From contig CBDEST010000005.1 of NCBI GenBank assembly GCA_965242625.1, positions 1,773,632 to 1,837,631 of the forward strand: 64,000 nt of DNA. Reading direction: 5' to 3'. Positions 21,143 through 61,416 of this stretch are shown piece by piece; the stretch's first letter is position 1; each line of letters starts with the position of its first letter. The notes below the pieces were generated by a model. It ran no database searches. It was not told the DNA's origin and was given only the letters and a program-made list of their open reading frames with translations. The stretch comes from Bryobacterales bacterium. GTDB taxonomy: Bacteria; Acidobacteriota; Terriglobia; Bryobacterales; UBA6623. The translations under genes were made by a program, and so were the position numbers.

Positions 21143-23410
21143 ATGCCGAGCACGGATCCCGGGCGGCGCGACGCCTTGCCAGTCGGCACGGTCCTGCGTG
21201 AGTTCACGATCCAAGCGGTGCTCGGGCACGGGGGCTTCGGGATCGTCTACCGGGCCGGGCACAACGAACTGGACCTGACGGTCGCGATCAAGGAATACCT
21301 GCCAGTCGAGCTGGCCGTGCGGGAAGGCACGGCCGTGCAGCCGCGGAGCGGGACGGAGCGCAAGGACTTTGAGGAGGGGCTGCGCCGGTTCCGGGACGAA
21401 GCACAAGCGCTGATCGATTTCGACAGCCATCCGAGCATCGTGTCGTGCCGGGAGTTCTTTCGGGCGCACGGGACGGCGTATCTGGTGATGGCGTACGAGG
21501 AGGGGCAGTCGCTGGCGGAAGTGCTGGCAAGCCGGGAAGCGGAGGGACGGCCGTTCGGGGCGGCGGACTTGCTGGGGGTGATGCAGCCGGTGCTGGAGGG
21601 GTTGGAGCGCGTCCACGCAGAGGGGGTGCTGCATCGGGATATCAAGCCGTCGAACATTTTGATCCGGCGACTGGACGGGCGGCCGGTGCTGATCGACTTC
21701 GGTGCGGCGAAGCAGGCCACGGCGAGATTCAGCAAGTCGCAGGCACCGTACACGGAAGGGTACGCGGCATTGGAGCAAGTGGCGGACGCAGGGAAGCTTG
21801 GTCCGTGGACGGACATGTACGGGGTGGGAGCGGTGATGTGGCGGATGGTGGCGGGCGGGAAGCGGCCGTGGGAGCCGCAGCATCCGGTGCGCGTGGAACA
21901 GCGCTCGCATGCGGTGGTAGGGGGAACGGAAGACCCGATGCCATCGGCGAGGGAGCTGGGCGAGGGTCGGTTTCCGACGCAGATGCTGGAGGTCATCGAC
22001 CGGTGCTTGCGGCTGCGTGAAGGGGAACGGATGCAAGGGTCGCGCGAGCTGCTGGAGGCTCTTCGCGAGGTGAGCGAGCTGCCACCGGTAGACGGCGCAG
22101 AGTCCGCTCGGCCGCTGGACGAGCGAACTGGATCCAAGCGACAGGAACCGGGATCGCATGCGGTGTCAACGGCTCAAGTGTCGCGAACAGGGTGGCGACG
22201 GGGTGGGTGGATTGCGCTGGCGAGTTCGATGGTCGGACTGGGGCTGGTGACTGCCACATGGTGGGGTTTCGATTCGGAGGAAACGGTACGGGATCAAGCC
22301 CCCGCTGGAGCCTCGGATGGCATTGGTGGCGAGATTGCGGTCCCGGAGCGAGGGGAGCCGGTGGATTCGGTTCCGAATCCCAACCAGCCGACAGAGAAAC
22401 CGGAGTCTCCGCCGGAAGCCGGCGGAAAGGGTCGGGATCTGGATCCGACGGGATCGGATCCAGAAGCTGAGAGCGGACGGGATGGCGAAGACAAACTTGA
22501 AGTGCGGCCGGAGGGGGCGCAGGACGGGTTCGTGGAGCCCTGGATCCGGGATTGGGATGCTTTGGGAGACATCCGAGATCCGGGATTCGCCGCGACGGCG
22601 CGGGCGTACATCGAACGGTACAAGGAGGTGCCTGAGGCGAGCGTGTGGGTAGCCAAGGCGCAAGGGCTGCTGGCCGAGCTGACGGAGTTGGCAGCAGCGA
22701 GTCCTACGCCACGCGAGGCAGGCGAGTCGTGGATGAATTCGTTAGGCATGGAGTTCGTCTGGATTCCGGTGGGGAACTTCCTGATGGGCTCACCGATGGA
22801 CGAAGCGGATCGTCTCACCGACGAGCGTCAGCATGGGGTTCGGATCAACCAGGGGTTTTGGATGAAGAAGCACGAGGTGACGCAGGGGGAGTGGGTGGCG
22901 GTGATGGGAACGAATCCATCGTATTCTTCCGATTGCGGTCCGAGGTGCCCAGTGGAACAAGTTTCTTGGGTCGACACGCAAGAGTTCACCCGGAGGTTAC
23001 ACTCGCGGGAATCCGGGAGCGGGTACGTGTACCGATTGCCAACAGAGGCGGAGTGGGAGTACGGGGCGCGGGCCGGGACAACCGGGGCGCGTTACGGGGA
23101 ATTGGACGCGATAGCGTGGCATCAGGGTAACAGCGGCGGCAGGACGCATCCGGTGGGCCAGAAGCAGGCAAACGCGTGGGGCTTGCACGACATGCTAGGA
23201 AACGTGTGGGAGTGGGTGGGAGATTGGTACGGCGTGTATCCGTCTGTTCCGGTAACGGATCCCAGAGGGCCCGAGGCGGGCTCGCGCCGGGTGGCTCGGG
23301 GCGGCGGCAGGTTCCTCAACGCGAATGGCGTTCGGTCGGCTTCTCGCTTCGGCAACTCGCCCGGCCGCCGCCACTTCTACATCGGCTTCCGCCTGGTCAG
23401 GACAGAGTGA
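21143..23410 (+). CDS. Ser/Thr protein kinase - TM - linker - FGE-sulfatase (CLec-fold) protein, array copy 1
   Basis: 755 aa. Kinase motifs: GHGGFGIVYRA, VAIKEY, HRDIKPSNILI, DFGAAK. TM helix: WIALASSMVGLGLVTATWW. FGE-sulfatase motifs: MEFVWIPVGNFLMGSP, EVTQGEWVAVMG, YRLPTEAEWEYGARAG, GNVWEWVGDWY, RGGG, IGFRLVRTE. Variable block at 23285-23383. Confidence 0.9.
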   Translation: MPSTDPGRRDALPVGTVLREFTIQAVLGHGGFGIVYRAGHNELDLTVAIKEYLPVELAVREGTAVQPRSGTERKDFEEGLRRFRDEAQALIDFDSHPSIVSCREFFRAHGTAYLVMAYEEGQSLAEVLASREAEGRPFGAADLLGVMQPVLEGLERVHAEGVLHRDIKPSNILIRRLDGRPVLIDFGAAKQATARFSKSQAPYTEGYAALEQVADAGKLGPWTDMYGVGAVMWRMVAGGKRPWEPQHPVRVEQRSHAVVGGTEDPMPSARELGEGRFPTQMLEVIDRCLRLREGERMQGSRELLEALREVSELPPVDGAESARPLDERTGSKRQEPGSHAVSTAQVSRTGWRRGGWIALASSMVGLGLVTATWWGFDSEETVRDQAPAGASDGIGGEIAVPERGEPVDSVPNPNQPTEKPESPPEAGGKGRDLDPTGSDPEAESGRDGEDKLEVRPEGAQDGFVEPWIRDWDALGDIRDPGFAATARAYIERYKEVPEASVWVAKAQGLLAELTELAAASPTPREAGESWMNSLGMEFVWIPVGNFLMGSPMDEADRLTDERQHGVRINQGFWMKKHEVTQGEWVAVMGTNPSYSSDCGPRCPVEQVSWVDTQEFTRRLHSRESGSGYVYRLPTEAEWEYGARAGTTGARYGELDAIAWHQGNSGGRTHPVGQKQANAWGLHDMLGNVWEWVGDWYGVYPSVPVTDPRGPEAGSRRVARGGGRFLNANGVRSASRFGNSPGRRHFYIGFRLVRTE

Positions 23411-23698
23411 CACTTGGTGCTATTACCCTTTCACCCTTGGGCGCGCAATGCGCGAGGAGTGCGTGCGTCGGCCAGCGAAGGTCGGAGCGAAAGCGACCGA
23501 GCCGAGCGGCAGAACGCATGCCAGGGCTTGGAGTTGTCCCTTGATTGCGGTCCGGGGCAGTCCAGCGGCGATCGGGGTCTCCGAGAGCGGAACCGCAAAA
23601 TCTTCCCTCCGGTACGCAGAGAGCTGTTGGACCAAGCTCAAGTGTCCGGTTCCGTCGGGGCCTGTGGCGTCGGCCCTTGCGTTGTGGCCGAACCCTCC

Positions 23699-25421
23699 CC
23701 TAGTTCCCGGATAAGAAATGTTTTGGACATGCTGAACACGCTTGTGTTGTAATGGTTTGCAGGGTTCCCCACGCCGCTCGTTTTTTCACCTCCGGGGTGA
23801 ATTTTCCGCGCCGGTCCGGAGCCCCGCTCACGATGCCTGCTGACAAAGCTCCCAAACTCTCTTACGGTATCTGCGACGGTCTGCTGACCGGCCTCGCCGG
23901 GCTGCCGGCGCTCGCCCGCTTGGCGCGGTCCCTCGGCCTGCCGTGGTTGCTGCAACAGTACGTCCAGATCAAGGTCCGGCAGCGCGGCTGCAGCGACGCC
24001 CAGAACCTGCTGAGCTTGATCTTCGGGCTCGCCACCGGCGGCGGGCACCTCAACACCGTCGACGCCCTGGCCGCGGACGAGGCCGCCTGCGAGGGCGCGG
24101 GGCTCGCGGGCGCCGTGCCCGACAGCCGCCGCCTCGGGGAGTACTTGACGCGCTTCAGCGCCAAGGCCCTGGACGGGTTGCAAGCCTGCGTGCGGGCGGT
24201 CAGCGCGCAAGTCGTGCCGCCGATCGCCGCCGCCTGCGGGAAGGAGCTGGGCTACGTGCCGGTGTTCATCGACGGCACGGGCATCGAGGTGCAGGGCAAG
24301 CAGTTCGAGGGCGCCGCGGTGGGCTACAACGGGGAGCGGCAGTACTGGCTGCATTCGGTGTTCGTGGGGCGGGCATGGGTCAGCGCGCGGCTGAACGAGG
24401 GCGGCACGGACGTGAAAGGGGACTTCGCCGAGCAACTGGCGGCGGACGTGGACCCGTTGGAGCTGGGGCCGGATCCGGTGTGGGCGCGTGCGGACGCGGC
24501 GTACTACTGCTGGGAGTTCGTGAAGGCCTGCACGGATCGCGGCTGGGACTACTCGGTGAGCGTGACGGACCGGAACAAGAAGGCGCCGGTGCTGCGGATC
24601 GTGGAAGCCAAGAAGTTCGCGGAAGCGGACTGGGAGCCGGTGGACGAGCGGGGCGTCGAGCGCGCGGTGACGGTCAAGTACCAGCCGAGCAAGTGGGAGG
24701 AGAAGCAAGTCTACGTGGTGATCCGGCGGGACCGGGACGGGGCGCAGGAGCTGCTGGAGCCGGTGTACACGGTGATCCTGGTCAGCCGGGACGACTTGCC
24801 GGCGGGCGAGCTGGTGCGGCGGCACCGGGCCAAGCAGGGCCAGGAGAACGCGTTCAAGGGCCCGCTGACGGAACTGGGGCTGCACCATCCGCCGTGCCAC
24901 TCGTACACGGCCAACCAAGCGTTCTACTGGTGCGGGCAGATCGCGCAGTTGCTGCTGCTGATGCTGCAATACCAGGTGCTGCCGGAGAAGGCGCGCCGGC
25001 ACGGGCTGGGGCCGCTGATCCGGGACTTCGTGCGCAGCGTGGGGCTGTTGCAGAAGCGCGGGCGGGGTCGGAAGCTGCTGTTCGGGACGTGCAACTGCCG
25101 CCTGGGCTGGCTGCTGCAGGCGGCGCAGATGGAACCGGGCTGAGGGGGCGGCGGCGGGAGCCGCCGCCACGGAACGACAGGGTAGCCCGGGCAGCTGACA
25201 GGGGAGTCGGCGGGGAGCGGTGCGCCTGCGTGGCAGGGCGGAGTGCGTGCATGGAGGCAACGAGGTCTCGAACAGCCTCCGAGACACCGGCAACCGAGTG
25301 CCGGAGACCATCCGGGGAGCCTCTCGCGCTCAGAAACTGGATCGTATACGGCCGGAGACCGGCTTGGTTAGAGCCAGATACCGGAAAATCCCGGATTGGC
25401 CAGAATTAAGCGGGGATTTGG
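23699..25421 (+). mobile_element. IS element, IS1380-family-like (1723 bp)
   Basis: It interrupts the conserved spacer. A 9-bp direct repeat GAACCCTCC flanks it (23690-23698 and 25422-25430). The ends CCTAGTTCCCGGATAAG... and ...CTTAAGCGGGGATTTGG are weakly inverted-repeat. It holds a single transposase ORF. Confidence 0.75.
23752..25143 (+). CDS. DDE transposase (IS1380/IS4-superfamily-like)
   Basis: 463-aa ORF; an alternative start MPADKAP is at 23833. N-terminal LTGLAGLPALARLARSLGL ... and C-terminal RRHRAKQGQENAFKGPLTELGLHHPPCHSYTANQAFYWCGQIAQLL fit the Y-R-E-K region of IS1380-type transposases as I recall it. Confidence 0.8.
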   Translation: MVCRVPHAARFFTSGVNFPRRSGAPLTMPADKAPKLSYGICDGLLTGLAGLPALARLARSLGLPWLLQQYVQIKVRQRGCSDAQNLLSLIFGLATGGGHLNTVDALAADEAACEGAGLAGAVPDSRRLGEYLTRFSAKALDGLQACVRAVSAQVVPPIAAACGKELGYVPVFIDGTGIEVQGKQFEGAAVGYNGERQYWLHSVFVGRAWVSARLNEGGTDVKGDFAEQLAADVDPLELGPDPVWARADAAYYCWEFVKACTDRGWDYSVSVTDRNKKAPVLRIVEAKKFAEADWEPVDERGVERAVTVKYQPSKWEEKQVYVVIRRDRDGAQELLEPVYTVILVSRDDLPAGELVRRHRAKQGQENAFKGPLTELGLHHPPCHSYTANQAFYWCGQIAQLLLLMLQYQVLPEKARRHGLGPLIRDFVRSVGLLQKRGRGRKLLFGTCNCRLGWLLQAAQMEPG

Positions 25422-25888
25422 GAACCCTCCATCGGGGCGGGCTCCCTTGCTAGGGAAAATCGGAAGCACTGGGTGCTGTCCGGGAAGCCCGCGCGCTTCG
25501 CGGGGGAGAGGCTGTGGATGGACTACGGCTTGGTACGCCTGAGGGAGCGGAAGCGTAGCTGCGCGTGAGCGAAGGTCGGATCTGGAACGAGAGCCGTGTG
25601 CGGGAAATCCCCACGCTCGGTTCAAAGAGCGGAGAACGGAAACGTAGTCAAGGTGGAGACTGAGGCACCGGCACAGGGGCGAGAGCTGTCGGAGAACTTC
25701 AACTCCCTCCATCGTCGACTAGAGTGCCTTGCTTTGGCTCCGCCTCAGAAACCCGGCGACTCCCGGGATCCGTCTCTCGCGCTGGCAGTACGCCAGCGCG
25801 GAGGCGAGCCGCTGGGGTGCGATAATCACGGCAATCGTCGGCCAGCCGCCCGCGGCCGCTAGCGGAAGCGCGGCCCAGCGATGACTCC

Positions 25889-27733
25889 ATGCCGAGCGCG
25901 GATCACGGGCGGCGCGACGCCTTGCCAGTCGGCACGGTCCTGCGGGAATTCACGATCCAAGCGGTGCTCGGACACGGGGGCTTCGGGATCGTCTACCGGG
26001 CCGGGCACAACGAACTGGAGCTGACGGTCGCGATCAAGGAATACCTGCCGGTGGAACTGGCCGTGCGGGAAGGCACGGCCGTGCAGCCGCGGAGCGGGAC
26101 GGAGCGCAAGGACTTCGAGGAAGGGCTGCGACGGTTCCGGGACGAAGCGCAAGCGCTGATCGATTTCGACAGCCATCCGAGCATCGTGTCGTGCCGGGAG
26201 TTCTTTCGGGCGCACGGGACGGCGTATCTGGTGATGGGGTACGAGGAGGGGCAGTCGCTGGCGGAACTGCTGGCAAGGCGCGAAGCGGAGGGACGGCCGT
26301 TCGCGGCGGCGGACTTGCTGGGGGTGATGCAGCCGCTGCTGGAGGGGTTGGAGCGTGTCCACGTAGCGGGGGTGCTGCATCGGGATATCAAGCCGTCGAA
26401 CATCCTGATCCGGCGGCGGGACGGGCGGCCGGTGCTGATCGACTTCGGAGCGGCGAAGCAGGCCACGGCGAGATTCAGCAAGTCGCAGGCGCCGTACACG
26501 GAGGGGTACGCGGCTTTGGAGCAAGTGGCGGACGTGGGGAAGCTGGGACCGTGGACGGACATGTACGGAGTGGGAGCGGTGATGTGGCGGATGGTGGCGG
26601 GCGGGAAGCGGCCGTGGGAGCCGCCGCATCCGGTCAGGGTGGAACAGCGCTCGCATGCGGCGTTAGGCGGAACGGAAGACCCGATGCCGTCGGCGAGGGA
26701 GTTGGGTAAGGGGCGGTTTCCGTCGCCGATGCTGGAGGTCATCGACCGGTGCTTGCGGTTGCGGGAGACGGAACGGATGCAAGGGTCGCGCGAGCTGCTG
26801 GAGGCTCTGCGCGAGGTGAGCGAGCTGCCACCGGCAGGGTCTTCAGGGGCCGCTCGGCCGCTGGCCGGGCGAACTGGAGGTAAGCGACAGGAACCGGGAT
26901 CGCATGCGGTGCCAGCACGGGCAGAGTCGCGCGCAGGGTGGCGACGGGGTGGATGGGTCGCGCTGGCGAGTTTGGTGGTCGGGCTGGGGTTAGTGGTTGC
27001 CACATGGTGGAGTTTCGGTTCTGAGGAAACGCAGCGCGAAGCAGGCGCGTCGGGGATGAATTCGCTAGGCATGGAGTTCGTCTGGATTCCGGCGGGAACC
27101 TTCCTGATGGGCTCGCCAGAGGATGAAGAGGGTCGTTTTCCCGACGAGCGTCAGCATGAGGTGCGGATCAGCGAGGGATTCTGGATAGGGAAGCACGAGG
27201 TGACGCAAGGGGAGTGGGTGGCGGTGATGGGAACGAATCCGTCGCATTTTTCCGATTGCGCTCCGCAGTGCCCCGTGGAGGAAGTGTCGTGGGACGATAC
27301 GCAGGAGTTCATACGGAGGTTGAACGGGTGGGTGTCGCGTCGTGCCTACATGTACCGGCTACCGACGGAGGCGGAGTGGGAATATGCGGCTCGGGCCGGG
27401 ACGACTGGAATCCGCCATGGGAAGTTGGACGAAATCGCGTGGCACAGAGACAATAGCGGCAATGGGACGCAGCCGGTTGGCCAGAAGCGGACTAACGCGT
27501 GGGGCTTGCACGACATGCTGGGAAACGTGTGGGAGTGGGTGGGAGACTGGTACGGCGAGTATCCGTCAGGTCCGGTGACGGATCCCGGAGGTCCCGAGTC
27601 GGGCTCGGGCCGGGTGCTTCGGGGCGGCGGCTGGAACCGCCTCGCGAGGTACGTTCGATCAGCTTCTCGCAGCAGCTCCTCGCCCGGCTACCGCAGCAGC
27701 TCCGTCGGCTTCCGCTTGGTCAGGACAGAGTGA
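25889..27733 (+). CDS. Ser/Thr kinase - TM - FGE-sulfatase protein, array copy 2 (short form lacking the acidic linker and helical segment)
   Basis: 614 aa with the same kinase and FGE motifs. The TM helix WVALASLVVGLGLVVATWW is followed almost directly by the FGE domain. Variable block at 27608-27706. Confidence 0.9.
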   Translation: MPSADHGRRDALPVGTVLREFTIQAVLGHGGFGIVYRAGHNELELTVAIKEYLPVELAVREGTAVQPRSGTERKDFEEGLRRFRDEAQALIDFDSHPSIVSCREFFRAHGTAYLVMGYEEGQSLAELLARREAEGRPFAAADLLGVMQPLLEGLERVHVAGVLHRDIKPSNILIRRRDGRPVLIDFGAAKQATARFSKSQAPYTEGYAALEQVADVGKLGPWTDMYGVGAVMWRMVAGGKRPWEPPHPVRVEQRSHAALGGTEDPMPSARELGKGRFPSPMLEVIDRCLRLRETERMQGSRELLEALREVSELPPAGSSGAARPLAGRTGGKRQEPGSHAVPARAESRAGWRRGGWVALASLVVGLGLVVATWWSFGSEETQREAGASGMNSLGMEFVWIPAGTFLMGSPEDEEGRFPDERQHEVRISEGFWIGKHEVTQGEWVAVMGTNPSHFSDCAPQCPVEEVSWDDTQEFIRRLNGWVSRRAYMYRLPTEAEWEYAARAGTTGIRHGKLDEIAWHRDNSGNGTQPVGQKRTNAWGLHDMLGNVWEWVGDWYGEYPSGPVTDPGGPESGSGRVLRGGGWNRLARYVRSASRSSSSPGYRSSSVGFRLVRTE

Positions 27734-27774
27734 CACTGGATGCTATTACCCTTTCACCCTCGGCTACGCACAGA

Positions 27775-28034
27775 GGGCGTCGGTCGGTCAGCGAAGGCCG
27801 GAGCCAGAGCGACCGAGCCGAGCGGCAGAACGCACGCCAGGGCCTAGACTGTCCCTAGATCGCGGGTCTGGGAAGTCCGGCGGCGATGGGGGTCTCCGAC
27901 GACGGCAGTTCGAGTCTTCTCTTCCAGTCGGTAGTCAATGGACTGCTGGAGCAACGCTGAAAGGTCCGGTTCGGTCGTGGCCTGCGGCGTCGGCCCTTCC
28001 GTTGCAGTTGAACCCTAATCGGGGGGCTCCGTAG
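27775..28034 (+). repeat. group II intron relic R2, 5' half only (3' half replaced by the higBA module)
   Basis: It aligns with the first ~260 nt of the standard relic. Homology ends at ...GGGGGGCTCCGTAGCCAAGG, where the higB reading frame opens. Confidence 0.5.
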
Positions 28035-28307
28035 CCAAGGAAAGTCGGAACTACCAAGAAATTCGCCAAGGGTGATCGCCGCCGCTTTCAGAGCCCGCTC
28101 GCAGACAAGATCGATGAGATACTGACGCTCTTGGAGTCCGGTGCCACCCCGGTGGAGTTGGAAGAGAATGGCTGTCAGATCCATCGACTGACCGGCGACC
28201 GCAAGGGTGCCTACGCCGTCGCGGTCTCGGCCCGCTACCGCATCGTCTTCCACTACGAGGACGGTAACGTCTATGATGTGGAAGCGGTCGACTACCGCAA
28301 GAGTTGA
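28035..28307 (+). pseudogene. higB: HigB/RelE-like toxin lacking its N-terminus and any start codon
   Basis: The open frame runs from the TAG at 28032-28034 to the TGA at 28305-28307: TKKFAKGDRRRFQSPLADKIDEILTLLESGATPVELEENGCQIHRLTGDRKGAYAVAVSARYRIVFHYEDGNVYDVEAVDYRKS. The HigB hallmarks LxGDRKG ... RIxF ... DYH/R are present. There is no ATG, GTG or TTG near the 5' end, and ~10-15 N-terminal residues present in the 18.5-kb copy are missing. Confidence 0.6.
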
Positions 28308-28321
28308 GAAAGGATGATCCA

Positions 28322-28744
28322 ATGGAACCGGACATCAACCGAGCGGATCCGCCGCCCGAGCTGTACGCCATCGACGGTGCCGTGCCGGCCGCAGTGCTCG
28401 AGGCGCACGTCGAGTGGCTGCGCCGCAACCCCATGCACCCCGGGCGGCTCATCGCCGGCACCTGCGAGCGCAAGTCTCTCAGCACGGCGGAGGCCGCTGC
28501 GCTGTTTGGCATCGCGTGCGCGGACTTGACCGAGGTGATCGAGGAACGGGCACCCGTCACGCCCGAACTCGCCCTGCGGATGGAAGCGGCAAGCTGGTTG
28601 AAGGCCGCTACTTGGATGCGTTCGCAGAGTGCCTACGATCTCGCGCAAGCGCGGAGGAGACTCGAGCGCACCGGGGCGATCCCTGCGGCGGCGGCCCCTG
28701 CACGGCAGCAAGCCAGCACCATGGAGTCCGCAGCCGCGCGCTGA
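28322..28744 (+). CDS. higA: HigA-family HTH antitoxin
   Basis: ATG at 28322 with AGGA 7 nt upstream. HPGRLIAGTCERKSLSTAEAAALFGIACADLTEVIEERAPVTPELALRMEAASW is the HTH region. It lies immediately after the higB remnant. Confidence 0.7.
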   Translation: MEPDINRADPPPELYAIDGAVPAAVLEAHVEWLRRNPMHPGRLIAGTCERKSLSTAEAAALFGIACADLTEVIEERAPVTPELALRMEAASWLKAATWMRSQSAYDLAQARRRLERTGAIPAAAAPARQQASTMESAAAR

Positions 28745-29140
28745 GCTAGCGATTCAGGCGCGACGGGGGCTGCATGGGCACCTGCGGAGAGCACACACGG
28801 CTTACCTCGCGGTGAGCCTGCCGGGCACGATCTCGTCGGAGGCCTTGGCATCCTCATCAAGGGCCGGACATGAGTGTCGCGGCAAGGATTCGCGTCCGCC
28901 ACAAGAGCACCTGCGCGGTATCCTGGCGGGCCTCAACTCGGAGATGACTCCCGGGCACCCATTGGCTGCGCGGCACGCTCGCCGCGCAGCTCGGCGGCGC
29001 ATGGACAGCGCCCCGTGGATCCAAGCCGCGGGCTAGCTGGAGCACTACGAAGAAGCTCACCGGCAGAGACCTGCGCGGCATTCCTGACCGCAACCGCCCA
29101 GACCGAGACTCCAATACACGCTCCAGCTCTATCGCGAGCT

Positions 29141-29599
29141 TCAGCGTTCGAGACGACCCAGCGATCGCGGCAAGCCCTTCTTCCGTTGGTCGCCCGCAGT
29201 TTCGTTCGCGGACATGGCGGAACCGGCAAAACCGCACCAAGCCACATAGCGTTTGCATGTGATCCATGCAACCGCTGGCAACAGCACGGCAGGAACCACC
29301 AAGTCCCCCGGCTGGCTACTCAAGATCTGCGTCTGCTGCAAAGACGCTAGCACCGCCATGAACACGAGATAAACAGTGACAGAGCGCAGGAGATCACGTT
29401 TGCTGAACGTTCTTGCGCTGTTGCGTAGTGGCGGGTTTCTGGCTAGGCCGATCTCGGCTAGCGCGACGAAGGCCACAGCCATGCAGAGCCAGAGGATCAC
29501 GTACTCGTAGCGACCCTCGGCGCTGAGTCCACACACACCAGCCAGAGCGACAGTGCCACCGCACCACGCGCACCGCTTTCCGATCCCGCTAGCACTCAC
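29141..29599 (-). CDS. integral membrane protein, hypothetical
   Basis: 152-aa ORF with ~4 hydrophobic helices (YEYVILWLCMAVAFVALAEIGL, VTVYLVFMAVLASL, LVVPAVLLPAVAWI). It overlaps the upstream gene by 11 nt and is duplicated at 37322-37780. Confidence 0.45.
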   Translation of the reverse strand: MSASGIGKRCAWCGGTVALAGVCGLSAEGRYEYVILWLCMAVAFVALAEIGLARNPPLRNSARTFSKRDLLRSVTVYLVFMAVLASLQQTQILSSQPGDLVVPAVLLPAVAWITCKRYVAWCGFAGSAMSANETAGDQRKKGLPRSLGRLER

Positions 29600-30477: not shown

Positions 30478-30599
30478 TGAAGCACCCTGGCGCTGGCAGT
30501 ACGCCAGCGCGGAGGCGCGCCACTGGGGTGCGATAATCACGGCAATCGTCGGCCAGCCGCCCGCGGCCGCTTGCGGAAGCGCGGCCCAGCGAGGACTCC

Positions 30600-47841: not shown

Positions 47842-47845
47842 TCAA

Positions 47846-51480: not shown

Positions 51481-51526
51481 CACTGGGCGCTATTACCCTT
51501 TCACCCTCGGACGCGCGAAGTGCAAA

Positions 51527-51994: not shown

Positions 51995-52222
51995 TGAAGA
52001 ACCGGCACGGGGGCGATAGCTGTCGGCGCACTGCTACTCCCTGCATCCTCGACAAGCGCGCCTCTCTTTGGCTTCACCTCAGAAACCCGCTGATCCGCGG
52101 GATCCGTCTCTCGCGCTGGCAGTACGCCAGCGCGGAGGTGCGCCGCTGGGGTGCGATAATCACGGCAATCGTCGGCCAGCCGCCAGCGGCCGCTTGCGGA
52201 AGCGCGGCCCAGCGATGACTCC

Positions 52223-54160: not shown

Positions 54161-54206
54161 CACTGGGTGCTATTACCCGTTCACCCTCGGACGCGCGAAG
54201 CGCAAG

Positions 54207-54676
54207 GGGGCGTGCGTGAGCAAGCGAAGGCCGGAGCGAAAGCGACCGAGCCGAGCTGCGGAACGCACGCCTTGGCATGGACTGCCCGTTGATCGCGGAT
54301 CCGGGCAGTGCGGCGGCGGTCGGAGTCTCCGAGAATGCCAGATTGAATCTTCTCTTCCCTGCGGTAGGCGAAGGGCGGTTTGAGCAAAGCTGAAATGTCC
54401 GGTGCGGTCGTGGACTGCGGCTTCGGCTCTTCCGTTGCGGTCGAACCCTCCATCGGGGCTCCCTTCCTAGGGAAAAATCGGAAGCACAGGGTGCAGTCTG
54501 GGAAACCCGTGCGCTTTCCGGAGGAAAGGCTGTGCATGGACTACGGCTTGGTGCGCCAGAGTGTGGAAGCGCGGCTTTGCGTGAGTGAAGGCATGATCTT
54601 CAAGGAGAGCCGAATGCGGGAAATCCGCACGCTCGGTTCCGCGAGCGGGGAGCGGAAACGCAATCGAGGTGGAGAC
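54207..54676 (+). repeat. group II intron relic R8
   Basis: Standard unit. Domain V at 54607-54639. Confidence 0.65.
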
Positions 54677-54904
54677 TGAGGCACGGGCACGGGGGCGAGA
54701 GCTGTCGGAGAACCGCCACCCCCTCCATCCTTGACAAGCGCGCCTCTCTTTGGCTTCACCTCAGAAACCCGATGATCCGCGGGATCTGTCTCCCGCGCTG
54801 GCAGTACGCCAGCGCGAAGGCGCACCGCTGGGGTGCGATAATCACGGCAATTGTCGGCCAGCCGCCCGCGGCCGCTTGCGGAAGCGCGGCCCAGCGATGA
54901 CTCC

Positions 54905-56887
54905 ATGCCGAGCGCGGATTACGGGCGGCGCGACGCCTTGCCAGTCGGCACGGTCCTGCGGGAATTCACGATCCAAGCGGTGATCGGCCACGGGGGCTTC
55001 GGGATCGTCTACCGGGCCGGGCACAACGAACTGGAGCTGACGGTCGCGATCAAGGAATACCTGCCGGTGGAACTGGCCGTGCGCGAAGGCACGGCCGTGC
55101 AGCCGCGGAGCGGAACGGAGCGCAAGGACTTTGAGGAGGGGCTGCGCCGGTTCCGGGACGAAGCGCAAGCGCTGATCGATTTCGACAGCCATCCGAGCAT
55201 CGTGTCGTGCCGGGAGTTCTTTCGGGCGCACGGGACGGCGTATCTGGTGATGGGGTACGAGGAGGGGCAGTCGCTGGCGGAAGTGCTGGCGAGCCGGGAA
55301 GCGGAGGGTCGACCGTTCGCGGCGGCGGACTTGCTGGGGGTGATGCAGCCGGTGCTGGAGGGGTTGGAGCGCGTCCATGCAGCAGGCGTGCTGCATCGGG
55401 ATATTAAGCCGTCGAACATCCTGATCCGGCGGCGGGACGGGCGGCCGGTGCTGATTGACTTCGGAGCGGCGAAGCAGGCCACGGCCAGGTTCAGCAAGTC
55501 GCAGGCGCCGTACACGGAAGGGTACGCGGCATTGGAGCAAGTGGCGGACGCGGGGAAGCTGGGGCCGTGGACCGACATGTACGGAGTGGGAGCGGTGATG
55601 TGGCGGATGGTGGCGGGCGGGAAGCGGCCGTGGGAGCCGCCGCATCCGGTGCGCGTGGAACAGCGCTCGCATGCTGTGGTGGGCGGAACGGAAGACCCGA
55701 TGCCGTCGGCGAGGGAGCTGGGCGAGGGGAGGTTTCCGTCGCAGATGCTGGAGGTCATTGACCGATGCTTGCGATTGCGGGAAGGGGAGCGGATGCAAGG
55801 CTCGCGCGAGCTGCTGGACGCGCTTCGTGGGGTGGGCGAGCTGCCATTGGCAGGATCCACAGTAGACGCTCGGCCGTCGGCCGAGCGAACTGGTGCCAAT
55901 CGACGGGAAGCTGGGGCGCATGTGGTGCCAGTGGGTGCAGAGCCGCGAATGGATGGGTGGATCGCGCAGCCGTGGATCCGGGATTGGGACGCTCTGGGTG
56001 ACATCCGGGGTCCAGGGTTTGCCAATACGGCGCAGGCGTACATCGAACAGTACAAGCAGGTGCGTGAAGCGAGCGTGTGGGTAGCCAAGGCGGAAGGGCT
56101 ATTGGCCAAGCTGAAGGAGGTGGAAGTGGCGGGCCCTAAGCAGCGCGAGGCTGGCGAGTCGTGGATCAATTCGCTAGGCATGGAGTTCGTATGGATTCCG
56201 GCGGGGAACTTCCTGATGGGCTCACCGAAGAACGAAGAAGGTCGTGAACACCATGAGCGTCAGCACGAGGTTCGGATCAGCGAGGGCTTCTGGATAGGGA
56301 AGTACGAGGTAACGCAGGGCGAGTGGGAGGCGGTGATGGGAACGAACCCGTCTCATTTTTCCAATCGCGGCCTGCGGTGCCCGGTGGAGAGTGTGTCTTG
56401 GGACGACCTGCAGGCGTTCATACGGAGGTTGAACGAGCGCGAATCAGGGTGGGGAGTGTACCGCTTGCCGAAGTTCATACGGAGGTTGAACGGGAGTGGG
56501 CATGTTTACCGATTGCCAACGGAGGCGGAGTGGGAATACGCGGCACGGGCCGGGTCGTCCGGAATCCGCCACGGGGAGTTGGACGAAATCGCGTGGTACT
56601 CGGACAACAGCGACGATGCGACTCATCCAGTCGGCCACAAGCTGGCGAACGCGTGGGGCTTGCACGACATGCTGGGAAACATCTGGGAGTGGACGGGAGA
56701 TCGGTACGGTGAGTATCCGTTTGGTTCGGTAAGGGATCCCCGAGGTCCACGACTGGGCTCGTACCGGGTGGTTCGGGGCGGCAGCCGGGGCAGCCTCGCT
56801 AGGCACGTTCGGTCGGCGTTTCGCGACGGCAACTCGCCCGGCAACCGCAGCAGCTACATCGGCTTCCGCTTGGTCAGGACAGAGTGA
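54905..56887 (+). CDS. Ser/Thr kinase - FGE-sulfatase protein, array copy 9 (no TM helix; internal 57-bp duplication in the FGE domain)
   Basis: The homologous start MPSADYGRRD is at 54905; the track ORF opens at 54851. It has the same TM-less junction as copy 8. Tandem duplication FIRRLNERESGWGVYRLPK / FIRRLNGSGHVYRLP at 56417-56524. Variable block at 56762-56860. Confidence 0.85.
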   Translation: MPSADYGRRDALPVGTVLREFTIQAVIGHGGFGIVYRAGHNELELTVAIKEYLPVELAVREGTAVQPRSGTERKDFEEGLRRFRDEAQALIDFDSHPSIVSCREFFRAHGTAYLVMGYEEGQSLAEVLASREAEGRPFAAADLLGVMQPVLEGLERVHAAGVLHRDIKPSNILIRRRDGRPVLIDFGAAKQATARFSKSQAPYTEGYAALEQVADAGKLGPWTDMYGVGAVMWRMVAGGKRPWEPPHPVRVEQRSHAVVGGTEDPMPSARELGEGRFPSQMLEVIDRCLRLREGERMQGSRELLDALRGVGELPLAGSTVDARPSAERTGANRREAGAHVVPVGAEPRMDGWIAQPWIRDWDALGDIRGPGFANTAQAYIEQYKQVREASVWVAKAEGLLAKLKEVEVAGPKQREAGESWINSLGMEFVWIPAGNFLMGSPKNEEGREHHERQHEVRISEGFWIGKYEVTQGEWEAVMGTNPSHFSNRGLRCPVESVSWDDLQAFIRRLNERESGWGVYRLPKFIRRLNGSGHVYRLPTEAEWEYAARAGSSGIRHGELDEIAWYSDNSDDATHPVGHKLANAWGLHDMLGNIWEWTGDRYGEYPFGSVRDPRGPRLGSYRVVRGGSRGSLARHVRSAFRDGNSPGNRSSYIGFRLVRTE

Positions 56888-56934
56888 CGCTTTGCGCCAT
56901 CGCCATCTAACCCTCGGGTGAGCGAAGCGCGAGG

Positions 56935-57407
56935 ACGGGGAGCGTCGGCTAGCGAGGGCCGGAGGGAAAGCGACCGAGCCGAGCGGCAGAACGCAGGCCC
57001 GGGCTTGGAGTGTCGATTGATCTCGGATGCGGGCGATCCGGCGGTGGTCGGAGTCTCCGAGAACGGGACCTCGAATGTTGTCTTCCCTTCGGGACGCAAT
57101 GAGCGCTGGGATCAAAGCTGAAATGTCCGGTTCCGTCGGGGCCTGCGGCGTCGGCCCTTGCGTTGTGGCCGCACCCTCCATCGGGGGGCTCCCTTGCTGA
57201 GGAAAATCGGAAGCACAAGGTGCAGAGCGGGAAGCCCGTGGGCTTCCCGGAGGAGAGGCTATGGATGGACTACGGCTTCGCATACCTGAGTGTCTGGAAG
57301 GGTAGCTTCACGTTACCGACGGTCGGATCTGGAACGAGAGCCGAATATGGGAAATCCCCACGCTCGGTTCGACGAGCGGGGAGCGGAAACGTAATCAGGG
57401 TGGAGAC
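56935..57407 (+). repeat. group II intron relic R9
   Basis: Standard unit. Domain V at 57338-57370 (GAGCCGAATATGGGAAATCCCCACGCTCGGTTC), with upper-stem mismatches. Confidence 0.6.
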
Positions 57408-57635
57408 TGAGGTGCCGGCACAGGGGCGAGAGCTGGCGGAGAACCGTTACTCCCTCCATCGTCGACAAGAGCGCCTCTCTGTGGCACCACCTCAGAAACC
57501 CGATGATCCGCGGGATCCGTCTCCCGCGCTGGCATTACGCCAGCGCGGAGGTGCTCCGCTGGGGTGCGATAATCACGGCAATCGTCGGCCAGCCGCCAGC
57601 GGCCGCTTGCGGAAGCGCGGCCCAGCGATGACTCG

Positions 57636-59654
57636 ATGCCGAGCGCGGATCACGGGCGGCGCGACGCCTTGCCAGTCGGCACGGTCCTGCGTGAGTTCAC
57701 GATCCAAGCGGTGCTCGGACACGGGGGCTTCGGGATCGTCTACCGGGCCGGGCACGACGAACTGGACCTGACGGTCGCGATCAAGGAATACCTGCCGGTG
57801 GAGCTGGCCGTGCGGGAAGGCACGACCGTGCAGCCGCGGAGCGGGACGGAGCGCAAGGACTTCGAGGAGGGGCTGCGACGGTTCCGGGACGAAGCGCAAG
57901 CGCTGATCGATTTCGACAGCCATCCGAGCATCGTGTCGTGCCGGGAGTTCTTTCGGGCGCACGGGACGGCGTATCTGGTGATGGGGTACGAGGAGGGGCA
58001 GTCGCTGGCGGAAGTGCTGGCGAGCCGGGAAGCGGAGGGACGACCGTTCGCGGCGGCGGACTTGCTGGAGGTGATGCGGCCGGTGCTGGAGGGGTTGGAG
58101 CGCGTCCACGCAGCGGGGGTACTGCATCGGGATATCAAGCCGTCGAACATCCTGATCCGGCGGCGGGACGGGCGGCCGGTGCTGATCGACTTCGGAGCGG
58201 CGAAGCAGGCCACGGCGAGGTTCAGCAAGTCGCAGGCGCCGTACACGGAGGGGTACGCGGCATTGGAACAAGTGGCGGACGCGGGGAAACTGGGACCGTG
58301 GACGGACATGTACGGGGTGGGAGCGGTGATGTGGCGGATGGTGGCGGGCGGGAATCCGCCGTGGGAGCCGCCGCATCCGGTGAGGGTGGAACAGCGCTCG
58401 CATGCGGCACTCGGAGGAACGGAAGATCCGATGCCGTCGGCGAGGGAGTTGGGCGAGGGTCGGTTTCCGTCGCAGATGCTGGAGGTCATCGACCGGTGCT
58501 TGCGGTTGCGGGAAGGGGAGCGGATGCAAGGCTCGCGCGAGTTGCTGGAGGCTCTTCGTGAGGTGAGCGAGTCGCTTCCGGCGGGGTCTCTGGAGGCCGC
58601 TCGGCCGTCGGCCGAGCAAACTGGAGTCAAGCGACAGGAACCGGGGTCGCATGTGGCGCCAGTAGGTGCAGAGCCGCGCACAGGGTGGCGACGGGGTGGA
58701 TGGATCGCGCTGGCGAACGTGGTGGTCGGACTGGGGCTGGTGACTGCCACATGGTGGGGTTCGCAGGACGGTTTCGTGCAGCCTTGGGTCCGGGATTGGG
58801 ATGCCTTGGATGACATCAATGCCCCTGACTTTGACCTGACGGCCCAGGCGTACATCGAACGGTACAAACAGGTGCCTGGGGCCAGCGTGTGGGTAGCCCA
58901 AGCGGAGGGGCTGTTGTCCAAGCTGAGAGACTTGGACGCGGCGAGAGCAATGCAGCGCGAGGCAGGCGAGGCGTGGGTGGATTCATTAGGCATGGAGTTC
59001 GTCTGGATTCCAGCGGGGAACTTCCTGATGGGTTCTCCGGAGGACGAAGAGGGTCGTTTCCCCAATGAGCGTCAACACGAGGTGCGGATCAGCGAGGGGT
59101 TCTGGATTGGGAAGTACGAGGTGACCCAAGGGGAGTGGGAGGCGGTGATGGGAACGAACCCGTCGCATTTTTCCGATTGCGGTCCGCGGTGCCCAGTAGA
59201 GGAAGTGTCTTGGGTCGATACGCAGGAGTTCATACGGAGGGTGAACTCGCGGCAATCCGGGAGGGGGTACTTCTATCGATTGCCGACAGAGGCGGAGTGG
59301 GAGTACGGGGCGCGGGCGGGGACGCCCGGGGCGCACTACGGCGAGTTGGACATGATCGCGTGGTATTCGGCGAACAGCGGCAGGAGGACGCATCCGGTAG
59401 GGCAGAAGCGGCCTAACGCGTGGGGCTTGCATGACATGCTGGGAAACGTGTGGGAGTGGACGGGAGACTGGTACGGCGCGTATCCGTCTGGTGCGGTGAC
59501 GGATCCCGGAGGTTCCGAGTCGGGCTCGCTCCGGGTGGATCGGGGCGGCGGCTGGGGCGGCTACGCGGGAAGCGTTCGGTCGGCTAGTCGCCGCCACCGC
59601 TCGCCCGGCTTCCGTGGCGGCTTCATCGGCTTCCGCTTGGTCATGACAGAGTGA
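57636..59654 (+). CDS. Ser/Thr kinase - TM - FGE-sulfatase protein, array copy 10 (TM present, acidic linker deleted)
   Basis: 672 aa. ...LVTATWWGSQDGFVQPWVRDWD... marks the deletion junction. Variable block at 59529-59627. Confidence 0.9.
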   Translation: MPSADHGRRDALPVGTVLREFTIQAVLGHGGFGIVYRAGHDELDLTVAIKEYLPVELAVREGTTVQPRSGTERKDFEEGLRRFRDEAQALIDFDSHPSIVSCREFFRAHGTAYLVMGYEEGQSLAEVLASREAEGRPFAAADLLEVMRPVLEGLERVHAAGVLHRDIKPSNILIRRRDGRPVLIDFGAAKQATARFSKSQAPYTEGYAALEQVADAGKLGPWTDMYGVGAVMWRMVAGGNPPWEPPHPVRVEQRSHAALGGTEDPMPSARELGEGRFPSQMLEVIDRCLRLREGERMQGSRELLEALREVSESLPAGSLEAARPSAEQTGVKRQEPGSHVAPVGAEPRTGWRRGGWIALANVVVGLGLVTATWWGSQDGFVQPWVRDWDALDDINAPDFDLTAQAYIERYKQVPGASVWVAQAEGLLSKLRDLDAARAMQREAGEAWVDSLGMEFVWIPAGNFLMGSPEDEEGRFPNERQHEVRISEGFWIGKYEVTQGEWEAVMGTNPSHFSDCGPRCPVEEVSWVDTQEFIRRVNSRQSGRGYFYRLPTEAEWEYGARAGTPGAHYGELDMIAWYSANSGRRTHPVGQKRPNAWGLHDMLGNVWEWTGDWYGAYPSGAVTDPGGSESGSLRVDRGGGWGGYAGSVRSASRRHRSPGFRGGFIGFRLVMTE

Positions 59655-59702
59655 CACCGGGTGCTATTCCCCTTTCACCCTCGGACGCACGAACTGCGAG
59701 GA

Positions 59703-60061
59703 GGACGTGCGTCGGCCAACGAAGGCCGAATCTTCTCTTCCCTTCGGTAGCCAATGGGCGGGTGGAGCGACGCTGCAATGTACGGTTGGGTCGGGGCCTG
59801 CGGCGTCGGCCATTCCGTTGCGGTCGAACCCTCCCTCGGGGTCTCCGTTGCTGAGGGAAATCGGAAGCTCTGGGTGCTGTCCGGGAAGCCCGTGCGCTTC
59901 CCAGGGGAGAGGCTGTGGATGGACTTCGGCTCGGCACGCCTGAGTGAGCGGAAGCGTAGCTTCGCGTGAGCGAAGGTCGGATCTGGAACGAGAGCCGCGT
60001 GCGGGAAATCCGCACGCTCGGTTTGAAGTGTGGAGAGCGGAAACGAAGTCAAGGTGGAGAC
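59703..60061 (+). repeat. group II intron relic R10 (with an internal ~110-bp deletion)
   Basis: Standard unit missing the segment after GAAGGCCG. Domain V at 59992-60024, ending GGTTT instead of GGTTC. Confidence 0.6.
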
Positions 60062-60286
60062 CGAGGGGCCGGCACAGGGGAGAAAGCCGTTGGTGAACGG
60101 CTACTCCCTCAATCCTCGATAACGCCTCTCTTGGGCTCCATCTCAGAAACCAGATGATCCGCGGGATCCGTCGGCCGCGCTGGCAGTACGCCAGCGCGGA
60201 GGCGCGCCAGTGGGGTGCGATAATCACGGCAATCGTCGGCCAGCCGCCCGCGGCCGCTTGCGGAAGCGCGGCCCAGCGATGACTCC

Positions 60287-61416
60287 ATGCCGAGCACGGA
60301 TCACGGGCGGCGCGACGCCTTGCCAGTCGGCACGGTCCTGCGGGAATTCACGATCCAAGCGGTGCTCGGGCACGGGGGCTTCGGGATCGTCTACCGGGCC
60401 GGGCACAACGAACTGGAGCTGACGGTCGCGATCAAGGAATACCTGCCGGTGGAACTGGCCGTGCGGGAAGGCACGACCGTGCAGCCGCGGAGCGGGACGG
60501 AGCGCAAGGACTTCGCGGAGGGGCTGCGACGGTTCCGGGACGAAGCGCAAGCGCTGATCGATTTCGACAGCCATCCGAGCATCGTGTCGTGCCGGGAGTT
60601 CTTTCGGGCGCACGGGACGGCGTATCTGGTGATGGGGTACGAGGAGGGGCAGTCGGTTCCGATTCCGAGGGAACGGTACGCGATCAAGCACCTGCAGGAG
60701 CCTCCGATGGCGTTGGAGACGAGAGTGCGGTTCCTGAGCGAGGGGATCGAGGCATGGAGTTTGCCTGGATTCCGGCGGGGGACTTCCTGATGGGCTCCCC
60801 GGAGGACGAAGAGGTTCAATATAACGATGAGCGTCCGCACGAGGTGTGGATCAGCAAGGGATTTTGGATAGGGAAGTACGAGGTGACGCAAGGGGAGTGG
60901 GAAGCGGTGATGCGAACGAATCCGGCGCATTCTTCCTGTCGCGGCCCGCGGTGCCCAGTGGCGGGAGTGTCTTGGGTCGATACGCAGGAGTTCATACGGA
61001 GGGTGAACGTGCGGGAATCCGGGAGCGGGTACGTGTACCGGTTACCGACCGAGGCGGAGTGGGAATACGCGGCACGGGCCGGGATGTCCGGAACCCGCTA
61101 CGGAGAGTTGGACGAAATCGCGTGATACAGGGGCAACAGCGGCTGGAGGAAGCATCCAGTCGGACAGAAGCGGGCAAACGCGTGGGGCTTGCACGACATG
61201 CTGGGAAACGTGTGGGAGTGGACGGGAGACCGGTACGGCGCGTATCCGTCTGGTCCGGCGACGGATCCCGGAGGGTCCGAGTCGGGCCTGGCCCGGGTGC
61301 TTCGGGGCGGCGGCTGGAATAGTCACGCGAGGGTCGTTCGGTCGGCGACTCGCCTCAACCTCTCGCCCGGCACCCGCAGCCTCATCATCGGCTTCCGCTT
61401 GGTCAGGACAAAGTGA
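60287..61416 (+). pseudogene. Ser/Thr kinase - FGE-sulfatase gene, array copy 11, degraded
   Basis: The kinase reads for 123 codons. A large deletion then joins it out of frame to the linker/FGE part (frame of ORF 60589-61125). TGG is changed to TGA at 61123-61125, where the other copies have IAW. The 3' end is still colinear (ORF 61189-61416), with a variable block at 61291-61389. Confidence 0.8.

Follow-up and report, generated by a model that had tools for sequence, protein, structure and literature searches.

A tandem array of kinase-FGE genes whose 3' blocks carry the adenine-specific footprint of a diversity-generating retroelement

In the 64-kb stretch of DNA analysed here (the window), ten paralogous kinase-FGE genes of one tandem array end in hypervariable 3' blocks that bear the footprint of a diversity-generating retroelement (DGR). 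This footprint is shown by the adenine pattern of the variation, by the match to real templates (TRs) of related contigs, by the position at which homology ends, by the protein fold and by the homogenisation of the block scaffold relative to its flanks. The reading that we favour, with a probability of roughly 0.88, is that the ten blocks are DGR variable regions (VRs), written from a TR of the type found in the related contigs L124 and L128 into remote receptor-kinase targets.

The array spans 41 kb of a window with 64% GC, non-cyanobacterial by composition and with metagenome contigs as its nearest relatives. Its genes, predicted to encode membrane receptor kinases, follow one order of parts, namely spacer, Hanks-type Ser/Thr kinase, TM helix, variable linker, FGE/CLec domain with the VR, and a conserved 3' element. 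The features are the following:

20447..61520, + strand: tandem array of 12 paralogous units (self-BLAST repeats of 78-98% identity; tblastn of g3)
21143..23410, + strand: g1, intact, 755 aa; VR (TR-homologous span, as in all copies) 23279-23400, with scaffold changes, W->R among them
23455..23526, + strand: conserved element of ~70 nt, 55-125 nt 3' of the VR, with core GCGAAGGCCGGAGCGAAAGCGACCGAGCCGAGCGGC; can fold as a hairpin
23752..25143, + strand: IS1380-family transposase between g1 and g2 (NCBIfam NF033539, 8e-47, below cutoff)
25889..27733, + strand: g2, intact, 614 aa, short linker; VR 27602-27723
27771-27842, 32926-32997, 35956-36027 and 42903-42974, + strand: other copies of the hairpin element
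30600..32888, + strand: g3, intact, 762 aa, product identical to database protein P0005; VR 32757-32878
33629..35911, + strand: g4, intact, 760 aa; VR 35780-35901
38781..42858, + strand: g5, disrupted; VR 42727-42848
43608..44684, + strand: g6, truncated, kinase only, no VR; similarity stops at ~44537; adjoins the low-GC insert
44850..47321, - strand: SIR2-like + nSTAND5 NTPase gene, in a low-GC (0.52-0.55) insert interrupting the array
49195..51480, + strand: g7, intact, 761 aa; VR 51349-51470
51524-51595, 54204-54275, 56932-57003 and 61461-61532, + strand: further copies of the hairpin element
52223..54160, + strand: g8, intact, 645 aa; VR 54029-54150
54905..56887, + strand: g9, intact reading frame; VR 56756-56877, scaffold W->R
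57636..59654, + strand: g10, intact, 672 aa; VR 59523-59644; downstream hairpin element deleted
60287..61416, + strand: g11, pseudogene; VR 61285-61406

Where the first-pass annotation had counted ten diversified receptor kinases, ten VRs are indeed present, but only eight of the genes that bear them are intact. In g5, a GC-rich insert of 1.8 kb (~40400-42175) separates the kinase, TM and linker part (38781-40400) from the FGE 3' part (42175-42858), which lies in a different frame, while g11 has suffered an internal deletion and a frameshift that fuse kinase residues 1-124 out of frame to FGE residues 511-761. No Pfam match was obtained for the g5 insert or for several spacer ORFs. The array sits in a defence island, with restriction-modification, SIR2-STAND and other defence genes nearby.

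An ungapped alignment was made of the ten gene ends over their final 210 bp, and the last ~120 bp proved gap-free in all paralogs. This alignment reproduced exactly the scaffold and both series of example codons described earlier, namely GCT CTT GCT TAT AAT GAT GGT GTT GAT CTT at block codon 4 and GGC TAC CGC TAC AAC AGC CTC CAC AGC GTC at block codon 15. When variability was computed column by column, as the first-pass annotation had proposed, 31 columns of its 99-bp block were found to hold at least three alleles, 29 of them at codon positions 1 and 2, and the changes are concentrated at these positions of 14 NNC/NNT codons. By contrast, such columns in the upstream 204 bp number 9, 5 and 14 at codon positions 1, 2 and 3, respectively, which is the usual third-position bias. 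The extent of the variable stretch had to be redrawn: the TR-homologous span measures 122 bp, and its mutagenised part 97 bp. With 14 free codons, each gene could take 15^14 ~3e16 forms, about the ~10^16 estimated before, or ~1e18 when three single-A codons are also counted.

The invariant columns of the block comprise 24 C, 20 G, 7 T and no A, whereas at the hypervariable columns A occurs more often than any other base (106/310). When the ten VRs were compared with the TR of L124, changes were found at 206 of the 330 A sites and at 53 of the 890 non-A sites (odds ratio 26, Fisher p ~1e-93); the corresponding figures for the L123 TR are 189/310 and 50/910. The TRs compared all come from other organisms, and ~20 of the non-A mismatches lie in three columns where these foreign TRs differ from the window consensus. 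The VRs therefore depart from these foreign TRs almost only at TR adenines, as DGR targets do, and all ten matches to the cassette stop at one base, after GGTCAG. Measured against a TR inferred from the window itself, each VR carries 1-7 non-A differences per 91 sites. The cleanest scaffold is that of g7, whose single non-A difference falls in a column split five to five between T and G among the ten VRs, and the most non-A changes of all copies occur in g5.

Outside the VR, the copies are less alike than the 90-95% identity previously reported for the rest of the gene: identity between paralogs is 70-92% over the 400 bp upstream of the VR (FGE domain) and ~88-93% in the kinase halves. At third codon positions, the entropy is 0.54 upstream but 0.20 within the VR. 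In conclusion, the VR scaffold is homogenised relative to its flanks.

The AAY template that had been predicted for these genes was then found in relatives of the array. Specifically, a TR was predicted from the window VRs and translated, and the resulting peptide, used as search query, retrieved P0121; this ORF was called over the TR of a cassette that also has bAvd and an RT with the motifs IGNLTSQ and YMDD. Related metagenome contigs carry bona fide DGR cassettes of the order HRDC-bAvd-RT-TR; L123, L124, L126 and L128 each have bAvd and an RT with IGNLTSQ/YMDD. In L123, L124 and L128, the TR adjoining the bAvd and RT genes reads AAC/AAT exactly at the 14 variable codons of the window and has a single A at each of the three codons that vary only at their first base; the L128 TR is identical at 119/122 positions to the TR inferred from the window VRs. 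These TR-like sequences were also considered as VR pseudogenes, but they follow the RT immediately and are in an all-A state, which contradicts this idea. The L126 contig holds a complete DGR with a kinase-FGE cis target, in which each of the 19 mismatches between TR and VR over the homologous span falls on an A, and among the relatives FGE domains that are 99% identical nevertheless have VRs differing at 15/34 residues. In a further relative, L129, an HRDC-Avd-RT cassette encodes an RT with 83% identity to that of L123; neither TR nor target was found for this cassette, which is thus of no use for refining the TR.

Wider searches returned more distant material. The VR scaffold pattern had 0 matches in GTDB representative genomes, and a protein-profile scan of GTDB genomes gave mostly unrelated kinases, the best full-length relative, from a Planctomycetia MAG, being 45% identical; a TR/VR scan and RT-motif screen of 85 loci found no DGR. 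A TR-like DNA pattern had no match in viral contigs, and in JGI metagenomes it recovered 37 TRs of genuine but unrelated DGRs; where they align with the predicted TR they are 72-83% identical to it, and they serve only as a sanity check.

These data bear directly on ordinary paralog divergence, in which the blocks would have arisen without a retroelement, from diversifying selection acting on residues that contact the ligand and perhaps also from gene conversion that kept the scaffold uniform. The paralogs are indeed old, their FGE domains being 8-30% divergent, and recombination between them is evident. Selection, however, does not account for the C/T third positions of the variable codons, for the absence of invariant A columns, for the one-for-one overlap of the variable columns with adenines in a real TR that relatives carry next to an RT, or for the single-base end of TR similarity in all copies, and we regard this explanation as extremely improbable.

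We hold an assembly artefact, in which the assembler would have strung population VR variants of a few genes, or of a single one, into a tandem array, to be just as hard to credit. Hypervariable repeats can confuse assemblers, and the source is apparently a single-contig genome, possibly metagenome-derived; yet the copies differ by 8-30% throughout, beyond the VR, the linker lengths, insertions (IS1380, SIR2-STAND) and spacers vary from copy to copy, and similar arrays occur on independent contigs from other samples.

The array proteins match Pfam Pkinase (2e-35) and FGE-sulfatase (1e-43), the latter spanning residues 537-753 of 755. The catalytic motifs GHGGFGIVY, VAIKEY, HRDIKPSN and IDFGAAK, invariant in 12 aligned members, place the kinases in the Hanks type, as judged from sequence. 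Among solved structures, the DGR variable protein TvpA (PDB 2Y3C, E 8e-34) is the closest to the C-terminal domain. The VR stops 10 nt short of the stop codon and so lies where other DGR targets have it, at the 3' end of an FGE/C-type-lectin gene. The earlier proposal that a DGR mutagenised adenines in the C-terminal part of an FGE/C-type-lectin fold is supported. The products are predicted to be single-pass membrane Hanks-type Ser/Thr kinases with a probably extracytoplasmic FGE/CLec domain, whose predicted ligand-binding face carries the VR; this arrangement suggests a role as sensors.

Downstream of the stop codons, the non-coding hairpin element, long, GC-rich and with a GAAA apex, follows 9/10 VRs, is absent after g10 and is nearly invariant in its nine copies. 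The same element lies 3' of the cis targets of the complete DGR in L124. Compensatory changes were seen in only 4/16 pairs, the core being too conserved for much covariation. Homing of the BPP-1 DGR needs a GRNA-loop hairpin, which in phage DGRs lies 4-34 bp from the VR (PMC3240598), and the ~55-125 nt of the window is farther. A conserved GAAA hairpin after the VRs would fit the BPP-1 element, and a role in homing may be supposed by analogy.

No TR, RT, Avd or HRDC genes or remnants were found in the 64-kb window, which has no RT ORF, no YxDD-bearing RT and no tblastn match to the HRDC, Avd and RT proteins of L124; the array is thus a set of trans (remote) targets. Likewise, no DGR RT or TR was found within 10 kb of the arrays on the five contigs L001-L005. 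The large RTs (1139 and 1272 aa) beside the L003 and L004 arrays were tried as diversifiers and rejected: they match PADLOC Drt1a (960-1131 bits), have no TR nearby and, as DRT1 (RT-nitrilase) proteins, are defence-island neighbours and not DGR RTs. No DRT1-type RT occurs in the window. A search with the cognate RT of the relatives' cassettes as query listed 120 relatives, down to 52% identity, and none on the 6,733,009-bp contig of the window; this negative covers called proteins of one contig and is weak evidence, and the same protein database does hold eight kinase-FGE proteins of that contig. We infer that this genome has, or until recently had, a cassette serving the array, its current activity being unproven.

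One comparison touches on activity. Relative to a 95%-identical strain (L001), the arrays are so heavily rearranged that only one 3' end is clearly orthologous. This pair, formed by g9 and the copy that ends at 9252 in L001, has VRs identical at 99/99 positions within flanks that are 99.8% identical. The L001 gene is a hybrid of the N-terminal part of g1 and the C-terminal part of g9, from which recombination between paralogs is evident.

It is conceivable, and we take it seriously without preferring it, that a DGR formerly wrote the VRs and that its cassette has since been lost, leaving frozen alleles that change only by ordinary mutation and paralog recombination. Such a fossil array would agree with the lack of a cassette in the window and of a close RT among the proteins recorded for the 6.73-Mb contig, with the unchanged g9 VR, with non-A scaffold damage in several VRs (W->R in g1 and g9; six changes in g5), with two VR-bearing pseudogenes and with a g10 devoid of the downstream element. 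In addition, the L129 cassette without TR or target indicates that such systems decay, and loss of diversifying components after variant selection has been proposed for cyanobacteria (PMC7517822). On the other hand, the scaffold, third positions included, is far more uniform than the flanks, which argues that homing went on long after the paralogs diverged; the near-invariance of the downstream element, the one non-A difference of g7 and the narrow scope of the RT negative point the same way.

Under DGR writing from a remote cassette, a TR of the L124/L128 type, with 14 AAY codons and three single-A codons, would be transcribed, and its RNA would be reverse-transcribed by the DGR RT with misincorporation opposite adenines, assisted by bAvd and, in cassettes of this type, also by the HRDC protein. 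The cDNA would replace the 97-bp mutagenised stretch of a target gene, with a 3' limit of integration inside ...GGCTTCCGCYTGGTCAG, where TR/VR homology ends, and the GC-rich GAAA-loop hairpin 3' of each stop codon would probably guide integration. The outcome would be eight intact receptor kinases of differing binding specificity and two decayed copies in a defence island.

More speculatively, and with rather long odds, the array may be a germline-like repertoire of at least 10 receptor-kinase 'antigen sensors', all served in trans by one remote, possibly mobile HRDC-Avd-RT-TR cassette and shuffled further by paralog recombination. If so, no larger target set would be known for a single TR, and the array would be a bacterial counterpart of a V-gene cluster, with kinase signalling coupled to it; no stated maximum of targets per DGR was found in the DGR literature searched. 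Should an active cassette still exist in the genome, a single template would supply eight or more intact receptor kinases, and each of these could sample ~1e16-1e18 binding-site variants. The array would then allow a compact test of the published hypothesis that immune or conflict sensors are diversified by cellular DGRs, with kinase signalling across the membrane as an assayable output. If the cassette is gone, the array is a clean example of DGR-written diversity fixed as a paralog family.

The mechanism is already established, and the array offers no new principle; it is of value for how large its target set is, for how the targets are arranged and for the conserved 3' element. Earlier papers describe targets of the kinase-CLec type, targets in remote positions and genomes holding 15 targets (PMC7517822, PMC10907252), so that the exceptional novelty claimed at first was overstated and the array is a large new example of a known DGR kind. 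The cyanobacterial kinase-CLec targets described in 2020, with 76 remote targets in 21 genomes, likewise have a Hanks kinase followed by CLec/FGE, with the VR at the very 3' end; a genome holds several paralogs, many of which lie far from the RT, and transposases nearby and an AAY-rich TR are further shared features (PMC7517822). They are, however, dispersed, whereas the window copies form one tight 12-unit tandem array in a defence island, and most cyanobacterial variable proteins are predicted cytosolic, while those of the window have a TM helix and a VR domain probably outside the cell (PMC7517822).

The clade-5 DGRs of Thiohalocapsa sp. PB-PSB1 (Dore et al. 2024, PMC10907252) share with the window many targets per genome (15 targets at 9 loci), incomplete loci with candidate trans targets, duplication and transposon-driven rearrangement, FGE-type CLec VRs, defence/conflict genes and one Pkinase target class. 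Only there has population diversification been demonstrated, with metagenomes, and its nine loci use four TR classes, as against one array in the window, where the ten VRs all belong to one TR class and no RT lies within 20-40 kb. Treponema denticola TvpA (2Y3C) has the same FGE-type CLec fold and C-terminal VR but is a lipoprotein without kinase and a single cis target. Finally, the Bordetella phage BPP-1 DGR (Mtd, Brt, Avd; Guo et al. 2011, PMC3240598) resembles the window in adenine-specific mutagenesis and perhaps also in TR/VR homology ending in an IMH-like 3' segment and in a GC-rich GRNA (GAAA) hairpin downstream of the VR; its target is a phage tail fibre in cis, whereas those of the window are remote cellular receptor kinases, with a putative hairpin that is longer and farther from the VR and, in the relatives, a cassette with an extra HRDC gene.

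Twelve paralogous units lie head-to-tail on the forward strand between about 20.4 and 61.5 kb of the window, as delimited by self-BLAST and by tblastn with the array gene g3. The product of a full unit is about 760 aa long and has four parts, namely a Hanks-type Ser/Thr kinase at the N-terminus (Pfam Pkinase, 2e-35), whose motifs GHGGFGIVY, VAIK, HRDIKPSN and DFG are invariant in 12 aligned members, a single hydrophobic helix (e.g. GWIALASLVVGLGLVLATWW) with R/K on its N side and D/E on its C side, an acidic linker whose length differs between copies, and a C-terminal FGE-sulfatase/C-type-lectin domain (1e-43). Among solved structures, the nearest to this last domain is that of TvpA, a DGR variable protein (2Y3C, 8e-34). 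Two database proteins from the 6,733,009-bp contig carrying the window, P0005 and P0009, are identical to g3 and g1, respectively.

The first-pass annotation had counted ten kinase-FGE genes with a 3' end; ten variable repeat (VR) ends are indeed present, but only eight genes are intact (g1, g2, g3, g4, g7, g8, g9 and g10), g5 being split by an insert and g11 having lost most of its kinase and acquired a frameshift. Of g6 the kinase alone remains, adjoining a low-GC insert with a SIR2-STAND gene. A segmental duplication runs from a VR end through a 2.9-kb spacer, whose small ORFs include one with ankyrin repeats, into the next kinase, which indicates that array growth involved blocks larger than a single unit.

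Window 27031-32209 and 35209-40390: 5.2-kb segmental duplication, 90.9% identical
Window 40400-42175: GC-rich (0.69) 1.8-kb insert in g5, long ORFs on both strands, no Pfam match

A gapless alignment of the ten 3' ends, taken over their last 210 bp, reproduced both the scaffold and the example codons previously described. Within the 99-bp block, 31 columns carry at least three alleles and 29 of them fall at codon position 1 or 2, so that the enrichment proposed by eye also emerges computationally; upstream, in the same domain, variation is biased to codon position 3, the ordinary pattern. The invariant columns of the block comprise 24 C, 20 G, 7 T and no A, while at the variable ones A is the most frequent base. 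At third codon positions the entropy is 0.20 inside the block against 0.54 upstream. Identity outside the block had been put at about 90-95%, an estimate that did not hold for the adjacent 400 bp of the FGE domain, where copies are 70-92% identical and thus far less uniform than the scaffold. Uniformity of this kind, third positions included, cannot be produced by selection at the protein level, whereas repeated overwriting by one template can produce it.

The only scaffold matches in the window were the ten VRs, and a scan of its 64 kb revealed no reverse transcriptase (RT); likewise, no DGR RT was found within 10 kb of the arrays in five related contigs. Gene callers often predict short ORFs across a template repeat (TR). 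A predicted TR, with A placed at every hypervariable column, was translated in the VR frame into a 47-residue peptide. The best match to the peptide in the protein database was P0121 (91% identical), located on the 2.5-kb contig L123 directly after a bAvd gene and an RT of 342 aa with IGNLTSQ and YMDD motifs. Through relatives of this RT, complete DGR loci were found: on contigs L124 and L128, FGE-domain targets are followed by an HRDC gene, bAvd, the RT and the TR. A more distant complete DGR locus, on L126, has a cis target that is itself a kinase-FGE protein, and all 19 mismatches between its TR and VR, counted over the span where the two are homologous, fall on adenines. A further cassette, with neither a TR seen after its RT nor an FGE-domain target seen nearby, looks like a DGR that is decaying or has been split.

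L129 9077-11005: HRDC-bAvd-RT cassette, RT sharing 83% identity with the L123 RT

The L124 TR, GGCTCGAACCGGGTGAATCGAGGCGGCAGCTGGAACAACAACGCGAGGAACGTTCGGTCTGCCAATCGCAACAACAACTCGCCCGGCAACCGCAACAACAACATCGGCTTCCGCCTGGTCAG, is the window scaffold in which each of the 14 variable codons reads AAC or AAT and each of the three codons varying at their first base alone has one A; the AAY-codon template foreseen in the first-pass annotation is present next to bAvd and RT genes in related contigs. Compared with this TR, the ten VRs are changed at 206 of 330 A sites and at 53 of 890 other sites (Fisher p ~1e-93), about 20 of the 53 sitting in three columns where the foreign TR departs from the window consensus. 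The L128 TR is identical to the window-inferred TR at 119 of 122 positions. Each VR has 13-25 of its 31 adenine sites changed, and all ten matches stop at the same base, after GGTCAG, beyond which VRs read GACAGAGTGA and TRs CACGCGATGG; a shared end of this sort would fit an IMH/IMH* junction. The two L124 cis targets, one an ankyrin-FGE protein of 1512 aa and the other an FGE protein of 508 aa, have the same VR sequence, which suggests a very recent duplication or conversion, and their scaffold is closer to that of the window (GGTCGGCG) than to their own TR (GGTCTGCC).

L124 6852-6981 and 8782-8911: two cis-target VRs, identical to each other

About 55-125 nt 3' of each VR lies a segment conserved above the surrounding coding sequence (core GCGAAGGCCGGAGCGAAAGCGACCGAGCCGAGCGGC), common to relatives with only 69% identical proteins and to the L124 cis targets, and deleted after g10. 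It can be folded as a long GC-rich hairpin with a GAAA apex (elsewhere GAGA, GACA or GATA), with a few compensatory changes in the outer stem. For homing, BPP-1 needs a hairpin 3' of the VR that is GC-rich and has a GRNA loop (PMC3240598); the predicted array hairpin resembles it in GC-richness and GRNA-type loop, but lies farther from the VR than phage DGR hairpins. The likeness is suggestive.

The array also bears traces of mobile elements and of recombination. Elements resembling group II intron domain V/VI occupy array spacers, each window copy ending 178-181 nt ahead of the start codon of a kinase gene; two exceed the gathering score (46.8 and 40.1 bits), the others scoring 28-37 bits. 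Neither an intron ORF nor upstream intron domains were seen with them, they were not detected in more distant relatives, and they are probably a remnant copied together with the array unit. A repeated segment some 455 bp long could represent a mobile-element end.

Window 25589-25708, 33319-33448, 43308-43427, 51923-52042, 54605-54724 and 59990-60109, forward strand: group II intron domain V/VI-like elements (Rfam RF00029)
L001 6960-7089 and L002 801-938: the same elements in related contigs (RF00029)
Window 10319-10774 (left flank) and 48435-47981 (inverted, beside the SIR2-STAND insert): ~455-bp segment, 86% identical
L002 3465-3918 and 20086-20542: two copies of the ~455-bp segment

Recombination between array members is shown by the first array gene of a 95%-identical relative (L001 7270-9252), a hybrid whose kinase half is orthologous to g1 but which matches g9 at 99-100% identity across its FGE half, VR and 3' flank.

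Current activity is the weak point of the DGR reading for this genome. Only at g9 does the 95%-identical relative have an orthologous 3' end, and the VR there is unchanged; moreover, several array copies are visibly decaying, as would be expected had the array recently been orphaned of its cassette. No cassette was found within the 64 kb, and among the 120 matches listed for relatives of the cognate RT, with identity down to 52%, none lies on the 6.73-Mb contig. Roughly equal weight falls on recent orphaning and on the VRs being served in trans by a cassette that lies outside the window, whether in the genome or plasmid-borne. In favour of recent activity are the homogenised scaffold, non-A differences from the inferred TR as few as 1-7 per 91 sites per VR (g7 has one, at a site that is T in five VRs and G in the other five), and the downstream element, intact in nine copies. 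A further point on that side is that, in relatives, proteins with 99% identical FGE domains (P0043 and P0057) have VRs differing at 15 of 34 residues.

The array sits in a defence island. To its left lie two paralogous type IIG-like methyltransferase/restriction genes, an HEC-01-type ATPase, a type II methyltransferase-endonuclease pair and a gene resembling PD-Lambda-2 B, while the SIR2-STAND gene lies inside it; in relatives, DRT1, Pycsar-like and AbiJ genes adjoin the arrays. The two type IIG-like genes belong to a tandem duplication, each unit encoding a ~1000-aa protein that resembles Eco57I/MmeI-type N6-methyltransferases. The large RTs directly adjoining kinase-FGE arrays in two independent related contigs were rejected as DGR RTs, being of the DRT1 type; a small ORF without family match lies beside them, upstream in L003 and downstream in L004. 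GC falls to 0.48 just past the array (window 62000-64000), and no tRNA gene was found in the whole window.

Window 2023-6002 and 6097-10071: 4-kb unit, tandem duplication, 88.6% identical
Window 61755-62267: MiaB-like (UPF0004) fragment
L003 8668-12486: RT-nitrilase defence gene, DRT1 type (PADLOC Drt1a, 1131 bits)
L004 15604-19023, reverse strand: RT-nitrilase defence gene, DRT1 type (PADLOC Drt1a, 960 bits)

Cellular DGRs have been proposed to diversify sensors of conflict systems (PMC10907252, PMC7159879), and the defence-island setting, which proves no function, fits this proposal. The array had been described as an unusually large multi-target repertoire, but kinase-CLec targets, remote targets and genomes with 15 targets are already known (PMC7517822, PMC10907252), as are the loss of diversifying components (PMC7517822) and the transposon-driven dispersal of DGR loci (PMC10907252). 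What is unusual is the arrangement: one tandem array of receptor-type kinases, found outside cyanobacteria and with no RT nearby, holds ten VRs that all belong to the same TR class.
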